Below are positions 753 through 40,692 of a DNA stretch of 64,000 nt, in pieces (within the stretch, counting starts at the first letter, position 1; each line of letters begins with the position of its first letter). Below the pieces are notes generated by a model that searched no databases, had not been told where the DNA came from, and saw only the letters and a list, made by a program, of their open reading frames with translations. The position numbers were made by a program, and so were the translations under genes. The stretch comes from Escherichia phage HP3.2. Where the stretch lies: sequence record OP978391.1. One strand, written 5' to 3'.

Positions 753-1712
753 TCACTTCCACTGCATTTCACATGCTAACTGAATGAAAAGATAAGCTAA
801 ATGCAATTCAGTATTAGCTGCAATACCATGATACTGATTATTTTCGCCGACAATTTCGTACATACGAATAATACTCTGCGGAGTTACACGTGAATAGATT
901 TCTTCGGCAAGTTTACCTACGAACCACGAATAATCAGCTGCATATTTTGGTGCTAAAGCTCTGAGTTGTTTAACATCTTTATTTTTGAGAGACTCAAGAA
1001 CATCATCAATAGCACCACGATCGTTAGTAACCAGTGATAAAATACCAGCATCCAAAACACCTTTAGATGAATAACTATCGAGCTCGCCAATAGTTTTACG
1101 AAAATCAGGAAAATTCTTTTTAACCAAAGCTGCTACAACTTTCATATCAGCTATAGCAATTCCTTCATGCTTACAGATTTCAGTCAATCGACGAATCATC
1201 TGCTTCATCATTTCAATTTTATCTTCATCGGTCGGTTGACCGAACGTAATAACTCGGCAGCGTGACTGAAGTGGTTTAATAATACCATCAATATTGTTAG
1301 CAGTAATAATAATACTACAGTTTGAACTATAAGCTTCCATAAAGGAACGAAGATGTCGCTGAGACTCTGCTAATCCTGAGCGGTCAAATTCATCAATAAC
1401 GATTACTTTTTGACGACCATCAAATGAAGCGGCGCTGGCAAAATTAGTCAAAGGACCGCGAACGAAATCAATTTTACAATCTGATCCATTCACAAACATC
1501 ATATCAGCATTTACATCATGACACAATGCTTTTGCTACAGTTGTTTTACCTGTTCCTGGAGAAGGAGAATGAAGAATAATATGTGGAATCTTACCTTTAC
1601 TTGTAATAGATTTAAAGGTTTCTTTATCAAAGGCGGGAAGAATACATTCATCGATAGTAGATGGACGATATTTCTGTTCAAGAATGTGTTCTTTTTCATT
1701 TACGGTAATCAT
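753..1712 (-). CDS. 44: Clamp loader ATPase gp44
   Basis: ORF 753..1727; start taken at [11 protein letters not shown] (319 aa); Walker A GTGKTT; matches T4 gp44 from memory. Confidence 0.9.
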
Positions 1713-37759: not shown

Positions 37760-38323
37760 TTATTTACCTAGTTTACTTATTATAGCTTCTGCAGCAGCTT
37801 TTAGCTTAGATGCAGTGTTAATACGATTTTTAATTTCAGTATACGCATCGCCAAGAACATCAAGGCTATCAGAATAAACACTTACACTATTGCGTTCGCT
37901 ATTTGAAATAGAACCTTTAGTTTTGCGGTCAAAATCGGTGTACACGTCTTGAAGATCGCGGGCTGCCTTCTTTGCATCATCCAATGCATCAAGAGCTTTA
38001 TTCAAAGCATTAACGTATTTTTTAGTGTCGAACATATTCTTAGAAATTTTAACAGGTGCGCGTTCAGGAGTAGCTAACACAGATTTAGGAACCTGAGCGC
38101 CAGATGCCAATTTCTTAGAAATTTTGAAAAATGCTTTATTGAATTTATTTTCTTGACTCATTGTAAAAGAACTATTATCGATGTTGTACATTTCAATAGC
38201 TTTAGCTTTCCACTTAAGAAAATCGCCGCGGTCTTTTGGGTCCAATTGGAAGAATACTTTAGTAAGATCTGCTTCAGATGGTAATTTTGCTGCTTCGGTT
38301 AAAAATTCGGCATAGGTTTTCAT
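37760..38323 (-). CDS. Internal-protein-like protein with capsid-targeting N-terminus
   Basis: 187-aa ORF starting MKTYAEFLTE, which resembles the T4 internal-protein capsid-targeting sequence MKTYQEFIAE with an LxE cleavage site. Confidence 0.6.
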   Translation of the reverse strand: MKTYAEFLTEAAKLPSEADLTKVFFQLDPKDRGDFLKWKAKAIEMYNIDNSSFTMSQENKFNKAFFKISKKLASGAQVPKSVLATPERAPVKISKNMFDTKKYVNALNKALDALDDAKKAARDLQDVYTDFDRKTKGSISNSERNSVSVYSDSLDVLGDAYTEIKNRINTASKLKAAAEAIISKLGK

Positions 38324-38413: not shown

Positions 38414-38444
38414 AAAAAGCCCCAACCTTTCGGTCGGGGCTAAG
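38414..38444 (-). terminator. Rho-independent terminator (repeat copy 1)
   Basis: Minus strand reads GCCCCGACCGAAAGGTTGGGGC followed by TTTTT; 31-nt sequence identical to 38971..39001. Confidence 0.6.
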
Positions 38445-38448
38445 AATG

Positions 38449-38922
38449 TCATTTGATTTGTTTAGCAGACCAAATGCGGTCTTTAATAATTTTTTGGATG
38501 TCTTCAACATACTCAAGAGAGTGAACATGTGGATTATCTTTGAAACTATAAGCACGGGCTAACTTTTGGCCTTCGGTTTTGATTACTAAAAGCTCTTTAA
38601 GGATAGCTTCATATTTAGCGATAATTCCTTTAACGATATTTTTTTCTTGTGCCGCTTTAGGATCTGCTTTAGGAGCAGGTTTACCCGAAGCCTTTGCAAA
38701 AGCAGCGCCAGTAGCAACTAAACTTTTCCAGGCCATACTAACTGCATTTCCCGTAAATCCTTCCGCTTTCATGTCGCGTGCAAACTGGAATCGCGATTCA
38801 TCAGAAGCATCTTTATAGGAATATTTACCCGCGGCAATGGCAGCTTTTGCAACAGCTTGAATTTCGGTGCTAGATGCTTCATTTAACACCGCTTCATTTA
38901 AAAATTGAGTATATGATTTCAT
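38449..38922 (-). CDS. Internal-protein-like protein with capsid-targeting N-terminus
   Basis: Start taken at MKSYTQFLNE (157 aa) after AGGAAA; Ala/Lys-rich body; the longer track ORF crosses the promoter and terminator. Confidence 0.55.
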   Translation of the reverse strand: MKSYTQFLNEAVLNEASSTEIQAVAKAAIAAGKYSYKDASDESRFQFARDMKAEGFTGNAVSMAWKSLVATGAAFAKASGKPAPKADPKAAQEKNIVKGIIAKYEAILKELLVIKTEGQKLARAYSFKDNPHVHSLEYVEDIQKIIKDRIWSAKQIK

Positions 38923-38950: not shown

Positions 38951-38970
38951 AATATACTAATATTTATACC
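38951..38970 (-). promoter_or_regulatory. T4 late promoter (TATAAATA) for the 38449..38922 gene
   Basis: Minus strand reads GGTATAAATATTAG, with TATAAATA about 40 nt upstream of the ATG. Confidence 0.55.
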
Positions 38971-39001
38971 AAAAAGCCCCAACCTTTCGGTCGGGGCTAA
39001 G
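38971..39001 (-). terminator. Rho-independent terminator (repeat copy 2)
   Basis: Identical 31-nt hairpin plus U-tract as at 38414..38444. Confidence 0.6.
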
Positions 39002-39039
39002 CCTTGCGGCAACCTTGTCGGGGTTCCACCTGCTAAGGC

Positions 39040-39300
39040 AAGTGTTTGTACGAAACGCCGGGATTCGAACCCGGTTATTAAGTAGTTGACGCTACTCAAT
39101 ATTTTTAAAAGGCCATATCTCGACCATATCCGAACGTTCCGTCAAAAACGCTACTCGGCTTACGGCAAAGATATTTCCTCGAATCGATAATTCGGTGCGC
39201 CGTTTCTGCTGTGATAGTAAAGAGCCAGAACACAGTAAAACTGTGGGAGGAAACTATACTCCAGGGAACATCAGTCCGACGACTTACCGGTAGCGACCCG
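39040..39300 (-). ncRNA. Candidate structured non-coding RNA
   Basis: About 260 nt with no ORF on either strand, locally GC-richer, several stem-loops including a tRNA T-arm-like hairpin CCGGGTTCGAATCCCGG; bounded 3' by the 38971..39001 terminator. Confidence 0.35.
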
Positions 39301-39305
39301 GTTTC

Positions 39306-39656
39306 TTAATATTCTTTTAAAGAATCAATATATTCACGGCGTTTACGCCACAAATCAATTGCTTCATACGCGGATTCAGCATTTCGAATTAGCCGGCATT
39401 TATGTAAAGACTTATGATTTTGATATTGTGTAGATAACGGAATTGTATCTAAAAGGTCTTTACGATCAAAATATTTGTAACCATCTAAACCAAATGAACG
39501 ATTTTTGAGAAATTGCCAATGACCATATTCGTTTTCGACATAAACATAATCTGCATGCTGATAAAGCAAATTAATTACACGTTCAGAAATAACAGTATCA
39601 TTATGATTAAAATAGAATGTTAAATCATGAACTACTAAATAAACATTACCTTTCAT
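39306..39656 (-). CDS. Hypothetical protein
   Basis: 116-aa ORF immediately 3' of the tRNA array. Confidence 0.5.
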   Translation of the reverse strand: MKGNVYLVVHDLTFYFNHNDTVISERVINLLYQHADYVYVENEYGHWQFLKNRSFGLDGYKYFDRKDLLDTIPLSTQYQNHKSLHKCRLIRNAESAYEAIDLWRKRREYIDSLKEY

Positions 39657-39664
39657 ATTTTCCT

Positions 39665-39740
39665 CACTTATAATTGGTCGAGGCAGTAGGGATCGAACCT
39701 ACGACCTAGGACTTAGAAGGTCCTTGCTCTTCCTTCTGAG
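39665..39740 (-). tRNA. tRNA-Arg (anticodon UCU)
   Basis: 76-nt cloverleaf folded by hand: acceptor CGGGGCA/TGCCTCG, anticodon loop CUUCUAA, T-loop GGTTCGATCC, encoded CCA. Confidence 0.8.
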
Positions 39741-39744
39741 CTAT

Positions 39745-39820
39745 GCCCCGTAATTGGGGTGACCGATGGGAGTCGAACCCATGACTACGAGAATCACAAT
39801 CTCGAGTTCTACCAACTGAA
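39745..39820 (-). tRNA. tRNA-His (anticodon GUG)
   Basis: 76 nt: acceptor GTGGCCG/CGGTCAC, discriminator C, anticodon loop UUGUGAU, T-loop GGTTCGACTCC, encoded CCA. Confidence 0.7.
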
Positions 39821-39944
39821 CTACGGCCACATTAATACCTACTCCAACAATCAAGATGTCTTCACACGAAATTAAGAGAAGAGTGATCAGTTCAACCCCT
39901 ATAATCGCGTCAAGTAGATATTAATGTGACAGTTGTCACAAATT

Positions 39945-40019
39945 TGGCGGACGTGATAGGATTCGAACCTATAACCAATCGCTTAACAGGCGATCGCTCT
40001 GCCATTGAGCTACACATCC
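39945..40019 (-). tRNA. tRNA-Asn (anticodon GUU)
   Basis: 75 nt: acceptor GGATGTG/CACGTCC, anticodon stem ATCGC/GCGAT, loop CUGUUAA, T-loop GGTTCGAATCC, encoded CCA. Confidence 0.7.
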
Positions 40020-40023
40020 AAAT

Positions 40024-40110
40024 TGGTGGGGAGTGGTGGAGTCGAACCACCCGAGTCGCAATGACAATGAATTTACAGTCCACACCGCTACCTCTACGGG
40101 ATAACTCCCC
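40024..40110 (-). tRNA. tRNA-Tyr (anticodon GUA), long variable arm
   Basis: 87 nt: acceptor GGGGAGT/ACTCCCC, anticodon loop CUGUAAA, variable arm resembling E. coli tRNA-Tyr, T-arm GGTGGTTCGACTCCACC, encoded CCA. Confidence 0.65.
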
Positions 40111-40119
40111 AAATTAATT

Positions 40120-40194
40120 TGGTGGCCCTGGGTGGAATTGAACCACCATCTGGCGATTATGAGTCGCTTGCTTGAACCTTCCAGCTACAGGGCC
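40120..40194 (-). tRNA. tRNA with CAU anticodon (Ile2-lysidine type or Met)
   Basis: 75 nt: acceptor GGCCCTG/CAGGGCC, anticodon loop CUCAUAA, T-loop GGTTCAATTCC; sits where T4 has tRNA-Ile. Confidence 0.7.
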
Positions 40195-40195
40195 T

Positions 40196-40271
40196 TGGTG
40201 CTGATTGACGGAATCGAACCGCCGACCTTCTCATTACAAGTGAGTTGCTCTACCTACTGAGCTAAATCAGC
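40196..40271 (-). tRNA. tRNA-Thr (anticodon UGU)
   Basis: 76 nt: acceptor GCTGATT/AATCAGC, anticodon loop CUUGUAA, encoded CCA. Confidence 0.8.
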
Positions 40272-40276
40272 AAAAC

Positions 40277-40366
40277 TGGCGGAGGCGATAGGATTTGAAC
40301 CTATGAGTCGCCGGAGCGACTGCCGGTTTTCAAGACCGGTGCATTAAACCACTCTGCCACGCCTCC
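40277..40366 (-). tRNA. tRNA-Ser (anticodon UGA), long variable arm
   Basis: 90 nt; sequence GGAGGCGTGGCAGAGTGGTTTAATGCACCGGTCTTGAAAACCGG... matches T4 tRNA-Ser from memory. Confidence 0.85.
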
Positions 40367-40368
40367 AG

Positions 40369-40442
40369 TCTCCGTGGCAGGATTTGAACCTACGACATTC
40401 TGCTCCCAAAGCAGACGCTCTACCAAACTGAGCTACACGGAG
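40369..40442 (-). tRNA. tRNA-Pro (anticodon UGG), CCA not encoded
   Basis: 74 nt: acceptor CTCCGTG/CACGGAG, anticodon loop UUUGGGA; ends 2 nt before tRNA-Ser with no CCA (Pro-Ser dimeric precursor layout). Confidence 0.8.
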
Positions 40443-40452
40443 TAAATTAAAT

Positions 40453-40526
<74 letters not shown>

Positions 40527-40531
40527 AAATT

Positions 40532-40618
40532 TGGTGCGAGAAGTGGGACTCGAACCCACAAGGAAATCATTCCGCAGCATTTTAAGTGCTGTGCCTTTAC
40601 CAATTTGGCCATTCTCGC
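40532..40618 (-). tRNA. tRNA-Leu (anticodon UAA), long variable arm
   Basis: 87 nt GCGAGAATGGCCAAATTGGTAAAGGCACAGCACTTAAAATGCTGCGG...; matches T4 tRNA-Leu from memory. Confidence 0.85.
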
Positions 40619-40619
40619 G

Positions 40620-40692
40620 CTGGGAATAAAGGACTCGAACCTTTGCATCCTGGAATCAAAATCCAGTGCCTTACCAACTTGGCTAATTCCCA
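40620..40692 (-). tRNA. tRNA-Gln (anticodon UUG), CCA not encoded
   Basis: 73 nt: acceptor TGGGAAT/ATTCCCA, anticodon loop UUUUGAU; abuts tRNA-Leu with a 1-nt spacer (Gln-Leu dimer layout). Confidence 0.8.

Follow-up and report, generated by a model that had tools for sequence, protein, structure and literature searches.

The genome of bacteriophage T4 carries, behind its array of transfer RNA (tRNA) genes, two further small RNA genes, rnaD (species 2 RNA) and rnaC (species 1 RNA). Species 1 RNA was reportedly sequenced in the 1970s by Paddock and Abelson; it is cut by RNase III in vitro, its precursors pile up in RNase P and RNase E mutants, and phages from which the whole tRNA region has been deleted are viable. 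Both T4 RNAs were described in 2010 as real and stable, with functions called unknown (PMC3014915). In a transcriptome study of 2022 RNAC was seen on a Northern blot and both RNAs were classed as late, their functions again being called unknown, and published descriptions term them 'small regulatory RNAs' (PMC9697503). When a T4-like phage was adapted to E. coli ECOR34 in an evolution experiment of 2025, a single convergent single-nucleotide polymorphism (SNP) inside rnaD was found in all three of the three lines, and virulence on ECOR34 rose from 0.17 to 0.98 with this SNP (PMC12685909). Here we analysed the equivalent locus of the Tequatrovirus Escherichia phage HP3.2 in a stretch of 64,000 nucleotides (nt) from sequence record OP978391.1 (the window), in which an ORF-free (free of open reading frames), GC-richer and structured interval lies at 39002-39309 on the minus strand, between a tRNA array and a terminator.

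Orthologues of T4 rnaD and rnaC in phage HP3.2

Read along the minus strand, the locus consists of 11 tRNA genes (39675-40692, as located by ARAGORN), an ORF of 116 amino acids (aa; 39306-39656), about 310 nt in which no ORF exceeds 42 aa, and the terminator. The original prediction had singled out positions 39040-39300 as a structured non-coding region, and its description of this DNA proved accurate. The only ORFs overlapping these positions were mechanical ones of 32-42 aa, and their frame was not conserved. GC content was 0.47 at 39000-39249, compared with 0.29-0.39 in the adjoining coding DNA, the tRNA array being similar at 0.43-0.54. The minus strand of 38965-39310 folded with -124 kcal/mol (z = -4.2), and none of 100 shuffled sequences folded as well. 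Neither a tRNA nor a transfer-messenger RNA (tmRNA) was found in the interval by ARAGORN, and no Rfam family matched it at the gathering threshold, in agreement with the predicted lack of a normal cloverleaf. In permissive mode Rfam gave only a weak tRNA-Sec match in the interval, with 17 bits and E = 3 (gathering score 47).

A blastn search with 38960-39320 against 50,697 phage genomes matched 808 records, nearly all from T4-like phages of Enterobacterales, and the interval was 100% identical to that of Escherichia phages HP3 and YUEEL01. With rnaC as the query, 750 phage records matched, 727 of them across at least 80% of its length. Where non-coding RNAs are annotated on the matched DNA (RB59, RB3, RB68 and T4), the labels are rnaD ('species II RNA') and rnaC; in T4 [GenBank: NC_000866] rnaC is annotated at 70908-71046 and rnaD at 71053-71171. 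Pairwise alignment with T4 showed two differences over the 139 nt of rnaC. In rnaD the first 47 and the last 24 nt were identical or near-identical to T4 and the centre had diverged, being the T2 variant (the T2 record PV648364.1, row H168, was 99.2% identical). Taken together, these alignments show by homology that the interval holds this phage's orthologues of rnaD and rnaC at the end of the tRNA operon furthest from the promoter, followed by a conserved trailer and the terminator. The two RNAs have been known since the 1970s and are not new, and the original prediction was right to compare the interval with T4 RNA species C/D. Its view of the interval as a single element gave way to a division into a trailer and two RNA genes that are independent of each other. 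The region that it had marked falls slightly short of the full extent, the RNA genes occupying 39049-39309 and the trailer reaching to 39002.

The gene order (tRNA array, rnaD, rnaC, trailer, terminator), the spacer between the two RNA genes and the terminator are all as in T4. Unlike in T4, rnaD carries a T2-type central hairpin and shares about 79% overall identity with T4-type rnaD, and CACC-G is found after the rnaD 3' end where T4 has CACC-A. The two phages also differ upstream, since the 116-aa ORF (phrog_3355) separates tRNA-Arg from rnaD here, whereas T4 rnaD begins 2 nt past the tRNA. Because of this inserted ORF, rnaD does not start directly after the CCA of tRNA-Arg, which is a difference of context that leaves the homology unaffected.

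Comparative folds of rnaC and rnaD

The structure of rnaC was evaluated on 30 distinct sequences from at least eight genera of T4-like phages, with pairwise identity down to 50%. Counts were taken from a covariance-model alignment (A7), as a MAFFT alignment of the 30 sequences (A5) displaced one column of the P2 arm; as controls, the 3' partners were slid by 1-3 columns and 500 shuffles were made. Over the 52 pairs and 30 sequences, 93.4% of the cells were paired, compared with 37-48% after sliding. The original prediction had proposed a search for covariation among T4-like genomes, and compensatory changes were found in 32 of the 52 pairs, compared with 5-11 after sliding; no shuffle out of 500 reached the observed values. 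RNAalifold applied to 20 rnaC sequences gave 46 pairs, 21 of them compensatory. When the window's rnaC (39049-39187) was folded alone, its minimum free energy (MFE) fold was the comparative fold, with z = -4.56 and none of 200 shuffles as good. Covariation thus shows the architecture of rnaC, a tRNA-like four-way junction comprising an acceptor stem (P1), a 70-nt arm at the place of the D-arm (P2), a 10-base-pair (bp) arm at the anticodon-arm position (P3) and a T-arm (P4; Table 1). The earlier label 'tRNA-like' therefore holds for the rnaC half of the interval, where acceptor stem and T-arm are backed by covariation.

P1 contains five Watson-Crick pairs besides its tandem U.U. Its third pair switches between A-U and G-C (13 and 17 sequences, respectively), and in Tegunavirus the tandem U.U is replaced by U-A and C-G, so that the stem is fully paired there. 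P2 measured 70-71 nt in all 30 sequences, even where its sequence was almost wholly replaced, and P3 measured 26 nt in all 30; between them lies a single-stranded linker with a near-invariant AAAAU. One nt separates P4 from P3, and, as in tRNA, P4 passes without interruption into the P1 3' strand. Its compensatory changes were G-C to U-A in 14 sequences and C-G to U-A in two. P4 is the T-arm-like motif that had been noticed in the original prediction; as the reverse complement of 39058-39074 it reads CCGGGTTCGAATCCCGG, also written CCGGGUUCGAAUCCCGG (39074-39058).

Compared with canonical tRNA (RF00005), rnaC has the same 7-bp acceptor directly stacked on a 5-bp T-stem, the T-loop UUCGAAU, a GG able to dock on the U-C of the T-loop, and a place in tRNA arrays with tRNA-like spacers. 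Unlike tRNA, it has a length of 139 nt instead of about 76, a 70-nt arm replacing the D-arm, and at the anticodon position a 10-bp arm with a 6-nt loop predicted to pair with the P2 loop. Its acceptor contains the tandem U.U, ACA stands in place of CCA, and it is detected neither by ARAGORN nor by the Rfam tRNA model.

Two competing pairings were examined and rejected. The tRNA-Sec alignment used the internal CGGAACG as a false acceptor strand, for which G.U becomes A.C in other genera while the true 5' strand co-varies. The MFE fold of the whole interval paired GAAACG of rnaD with CGUUUC of rnaC; this was ruled out, since other genera have rnaC but no rnaD and since the CGAUUCG/CGUUUCG stem shows covariation.

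The apical loops of P2 and P3 were complementary in every sequence. UUGAC faced GUCAA in most lineages (23 distinct sequences), UUGAU faced AUCAA in Tegunavirus (2) and UUGGC faced GCCAA in Klebsiella phages (Marfavirus; 5). All five pairs of this helix could form in 30 of 30 sequences, with double changes in two pairs and one-sided changes in none. Two further phages with divergent P2, Kosakonia phage 305 and Citrobacter phage Ursula, retain UUGAC/GUCAA; in Klebsiella phage EI the loops read UUGGC/GCCAA. The loop columns were unpaired in the covariance model that built the rnaC alignment, and the test is therefore not circular. These data indicate that the two loops form a predicted loop-loop 'kissing' contact, of which no mention was found in the literature that could be searched. 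The fixed lengths of P2 and P3 are what a closed intramolecular geometry would demand.

A second contact may form an elbow. Immediately 5' of the 3' strand of the P2 base helix there is an unpaired GG; with P2 regarded as inserted into a D-loop, this GG would correspond to G18 G19. Against positions 2-3 of the T-loop, this GG gave G-C in 30 of 30 sequences for one pair; the other was G.U in 27 and C-G in three, the latter with T-loop UGCAUGC or UGCAUUC. As these changes represent one or two evolutionary events, they are only suggestive of a GG/T-loop elbow in rnaC. Behind the acceptor strand the tail reads U-ACA-A in the window, U-UCA-A in Tegunavirus and U-CCA-A in the Marfavirus clade. An NCA triplet therefore occupies the place of the tRNA CCA, and the T4 annotation closes rnaC at '...GUA'.

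For rnaD, 17 distinct homologues were aligned (A4). The closing A-U pair of hairpin H1 is changed to G-C in three sequences. Invariant segments are AAGUCGUCGGACUGA and, towards the 3' end, CACAGC-GAAACGGCGCAC; the hairpin between them occurs in three or more versions that are unrelated in sequence. In the RNAalifold structure the 3' end of rnaD pairs with an internal GUCGUCG and encloses two co-varying helices, one with U-A changed to A-U in six sequences and one represented by GUAAG/CUUAC. Mature rnaD, as annotated, ends one base past this long-range helix. Altogether 97% of the cells were paired, compared with 33-51% after sliding, and six pairs showed compensatory change. Covariation support for the predicted rnaD fold is weaker than that for rnaC, but real.

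Table 1. Predicted RNA genes, structural elements and 3' signals of the rnaD-rnaC locus in the window, in minus-strand order
Feature	Position	Strand	Description
rnaD homologue ('species 2 RNA')	39194..39309	-	116 nt by homology to the T4 annotation
rnaD hairpin H1	39286..39302	-	ACCGG-GUCGCUA-CCGGU; 5 bp; 7-nt loop invariant in 17 of 17
rnaD-rnaC spacer	39188..39193	-	GAAUUA; 6 nt, A/U-rich; like the 5-9-nt inter-tRNA spacers of arrays
rnaC homologue ('species 1 RNA')	39049..39187	-	139 nt; modelled as a tRNA-like four-way junction
P1, acceptor-like stem	39180..39186 with 39051..39057	-	CGAUUCG with CGUUUCG; 7 bp; tandem U.U mismatch
P2, irregular arm at D-arm position	39110..39179	-	70 nt; 3-bp base helix; compensatory pairs 19/25
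P2 apical loop	39141..39145	-	UUGAC; exact complement of P3-loop GUCAA (39086-39090)
P3, arm at anticodon-arm position	39076..39101	-	10 bp; 6-nt loop CGUCAA; compensatory pairs 8/10
P4, T-arm	39058..39074	-	CCGGG-UUCGAAU-CCCGG; 5-bp stem, 7-nt loop; compensatory pairs 2/5
Conserved 3' trailer	39002..39048	-	47 nt; CAAA, 7-bp hairpin, hairpin of 4 bp with 7-nt loop, small GCAA hairpin
Intrinsic terminator of the tRNA/rnaD/rnaC unit	38970..38998	-	10-bp stem (38998-38975) and T-run; sequence shared with T4

Distribution and possible function

Within Tequatrovirus, rnaC was more than 97% identical, and homologues with 70-88% identity were found in Kanagawavirus, Karamvirus, Winklervirus, Tegunavirus, Gelderlandvirus, Marfavirus and unclassified Straboviridae. 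In Kanagawa-, Karam-, Winkler-, Teguna- and Gelderlandvirus, as well as in Citrobacter phage Ursula, its distance from the next tRNA of the array, upstream or downstream, is 5-9 nt; in Marfavirus it stands within the tRNA cluster, 66 nt past tRNA-Met. Pattern scans of IMG/VR and metagenomes yielded further rnaC copies, and the same kind of scan yielded none in 185,579 bacterial and archaeal genomes. The interval had no blastn match on either strand at E <= 1 in 5,426 complete E. coli genomes. On the grounds of these two negative results, a host origin or a long antisense target was rejected.

The two RNA genes do not travel together. rnaD was seen only in T4-like loci, i.e. in Tequatrovirus, in phages such as VR20 and VR25 and in unclassified IMG/VR contigs, and none was found at the rnaC loci of the other genera examined. 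Conversely, rnaC is missing to the nucleotide in five of the compared loci (L027 and L029-L032), in which rnaD joins the trailer directly, ...GGCGCACCGAA being followed by CACUUGCC..., and a further one (L026) has unrelated DNA after rnaD. The natural loss of rnaC and the absence of rnaD elsewhere therefore mark the two as independent, dispensable modules. Retained beside rnaD when rnaC is deleted, the trailer belongs with the operon end and not with rnaC.

As judged from the anatomy of the locus and the T4 literature, rnaD and rnaC would be made by read-through of the tRNA cluster and excised like tRNAs. A sigma-70-like scan for a promoter of their own gave 9 matches, compared with 7.2 +/- 2.4 in shuffled sequence, and was not above expectation. 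RNase P, the CCA-adding enzyme, enzymes that modify the T-loop and other readers of tRNA shape recognise the acceptor/T-arm stack and the elbow of tRNA; rnaC would offer its 12-bp acceptor/T-arm stack and T-loop/GG elbow to RNase P and tRNA-end enzymes. An A/U-rich leader of 6 nt precedes rnaC, as for the array tRNAs. RNase P would free the 5' end of rnaC, after which the 3' end of rnaD would be trimmed back to its stem by an exonuclease. Having neither a 7-nt anticodon loop nor an encoded CCA, rnaC is unlikely to have a decoding role. Helices and the two proposed contacts can account for most of its conserved nucleotides, the AAAAU linker excepted, so that selection seems to act mainly on shape. 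That the published rnaD SNP acts in a host-specific way speaks for an accessory role in host interaction.

In our judgement a joint explanation is very probably correct, in which the interval consists of rnaC and rnaD orthologues with tRNA-like release and, for rnaC, a four-way-junction architecture. For the function itself we only tentatively favour one version, in which rnaC would act by shape as a stable mimic of the tRNA 'top half' on a rigid closed scaffold, engaging a tRNA-binding factor of host or phage in a host-dependent and non-essential way, and rnaD would be an independent module with its own host-dependent role. A bolder and less likely version regards rnaC as a widespread, previously unmodelled family of phage tRNA mimics, with the tRNA 'top half' joined to two fixed-length arms that the 5-bp loop contact locks into a closed, rigid shape. 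They would serve as decoy or inhibitor of a host tRNA-shape reader, such as a defence nuclease that targets tRNA or a toxin that modifies tRNA ends, with rnaD as a second, independent determinant of host range. Such a decoy would explain the presence of rnaC in phage tRNA arrays and its loss from some lineages.

Several observations weigh against this explanation or its parts. The ends of rnaD and rnaC in this phage were placed by homology to the T4 annotation, and the annotated 5' nucleotide of T4 rnaC lies one base upstream of the first acceptor pair, which is hard to reconcile with canonical RNase P cleavage. Most of the covariation stems from five or six outlying lineages, the Tequatrovirus sequences being too alike. 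In rnaD, helix 2 (GUCGUCG/CGGCG-CAC) is invariant and so outside the reach of covariation, and a local hairpin, AGUC-GUCG-GACU, could form just as well in its place; thermodynamically rnaD resembled shuffled sequence (z from -0.2 to -1.6, -0.2 for the copy in the window), although four variants share the architecture. The kissing contact could represent an intermolecular dimer. As to function, the mimic is inference only, and the sequence names no partner.

Ranked next after the mimic, and rather unlikely in our estimate, is a purely cis-acting role, in which rnaD and rnaC would be processing 'punctuation' and 3'-end stabilisers that guide cleavage by RNase P and RNase E and protect the transcript, with products functionless in trans. 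The location of both RNAs at the 3' end of the operon just ahead of the terminator, the acceptor/T-arm stack and elbow kept by rnaC, which are features suited to tRNA-end enzymes, and the dispensability of both RNAs in some natural phages are all compatible with it. However, rnaC is internal to the array in other genera, with tRNAs on both sides, and can be no 3'-end protector there; for such a role an acceptor/T-arm minihelix would suffice, and fixed-length arms of 70 and 26 nt with co-varying loops would be unneeded. The strong host-specific phenotype of a point mutation in rnaD (PMC12685909) also disagrees with products that do nothing in trans. We assign about the same low likelihood to the possibility that rnaD, and perhaps rnaC, pairs in trans with host or phage mRNAs through invariant single strands, which is more plausible for rnaD. 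The (near-)invariant 5' 47 nt and 3' 24 nt flanking a central hairpin that has been replaced by at least three types, the published term 'small regulatory RNAs' (PMC9697503) and the adaptive SNP on one host (PMC12685909) would fit a base-pairing RNA. The blastn result for the E. coli genomes counts against it, excluding long complementarity only and not a short seed, and in rnaC the conserved loop nucleotides are mostly explained by intramolecular contacts.

The remaining alternatives appear far less probable. The original prediction had also considered a decayed tRNA, and drifting tRNA pseudogenes would account for the T-arm-like motif, the acceptor-like stem, the weak tRNA-Sec match and the naming of part of rnaC as 'tRNA-OTHER' or 'tRNA-Lys' in some records. 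This is very unlikely, as the compensatory pairs include arms without a tRNA counterpart, which are under strong structural selection across at least eight genera; loops are invariant or co-varying, arm lengths stay fixed at 50% identity, and the RNAs are stable in T4 infection (PMC9697503). No more attractive is the assignment of rnaC to a known class of tRNA mimics, tmRNA or the bacterial Y RNA YrlA (RF02553), in which a tRNA-like module is likewise joined to a long non-tRNA helix; some YrlA-type mimics are RNase P substrates, and YrlA-type RNAs occur in some phages (PMC4201824). The topology differs, since the ends of the RNA form the Ro-binding stem in YrlA and the acceptor stem in rnaC, which lacks a Ro-binding GNCGAA stem and has no adjacent rsr gene. 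The YrlA model did not match the interval, its only hit (17.7 bits, gathering score 69) falling on true tRNAs at 39725-39787, and there was no mRNA-like tag, no suitable ORF for one and no tmRNA called by ARAGORN. Least probable of all is a hidden small, spliced or frameshifted coding gene. Many 'hypothetical protein' coding sequences in GenBank do overlie the interval, such as one of 45 aa in phage Marfa, but only the short mechanical ORFs are present, without a conserved frame, homologues differ by 1-nt indels, and substitutions preserve RNA pairing and not codons.

The presence of rnaC and rnaD in a T4-like genome is routine, and the practical value of this result lies in annotation, because many GenBank records are blank or mislabelled here and Rfam has no family for them. 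What is added is a covariation-backed model of rnaC with a proposed kissing-loop, and the spread of the rnaC family over tRNA arrays of many T4-like genera. For about 50 years the function of these two abundant RNAs has gone unexplained, and the rnaC model is concrete and testable; together with the published adaptive rnaD SNP, it makes the design of loop mutants and partner pull-downs straightforward.

Flanking features and minor observations

Trailer and terminator show few differences from T4. The repeated terminator that the original prediction had placed on the 3' side of the interval was recovered as an identical 24-nt hairpin, AGCCCCGACCGAAAGGUUGGGGCU, at 38975-38998 (-) and 38418-38441 (-). 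The ORFs 38449-38922 (-) and 37760-38323 (-) are adjacent paralogues, both in phrog_2280 and each followed by AGCCCCGACCGAAAGGUUGGGGCU, and the arrangement suggests that a gene and its terminator were duplicated in tandem. In L015, L020, L021 and L027-L032 the terminator hairpin is GCCCCUUCCGAAAGGUUGGGGC, with tandem U.U where the window has G.U and A-U; a tandem U.U of this kind is also a conserved feature of the acceptor stem of rnaC. The late-promoter box nearest to the interval, TATAAATA (38961-38968), is located immediately past the first terminator and belongs to the following gene.

The TAA stop of the 116-aa ORF 39306-39656 (-) overlaps the T4-equivalent 5' end of rnaD, and the same ORF insertion between tRNA-Arg and rnaD is also present in L011, L020, L021 and L025. 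The flanking ORFs belong to PHROG families without assigned function and gave no significant Pfam domain. Within the tRNA array, a gap of 114 nt (39831-39944, minus strand) from tRNA-Asn (39945-40019) to tRNA-His (39755-39830) contained no ORF, tRNA or Rfam match.

In other records rnaC and rnaD are labelled 'hypothetical protein', 'tRNA-Lys' or 'tRNA-OTHER'. In Klebsiella phage Marfa (L052), rnaC at 1217-1354 is annotated as a 'hypothetical protein' of 45 aa with a ribosome-binding site, and the 66-nt spacer between tRNA-Met and rnaC (1135-1200) is hairpin-forming, GGGGUGG...CCCACCCC. Kanagawavirus-type loci (L004, L010, L022 and L019) have a long GC-rich and apparently structured non-coding stretch after rnaC, which opens like the 5' half of a tRNA (GGUGAAAUUUGGUAGACACG...) and could be a tRNA that has been interrupted or a structured RNA of another kind. 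Directly upstream of rnaC in Kosakonia phage Kc304 (L006, approximately 612-691) lies an unannotated tRNA-like sequence, GGGAGUU...AGCUCCCACCA, with a non-canonical T-arm. At 1073-1188 (-) of L018, about 575 nt upstream of the true rnaC of that contig, the rnaC covariance model gave another, weak match (24 bits, E = 0.002), which could be a tRNA or a distant paralogue.

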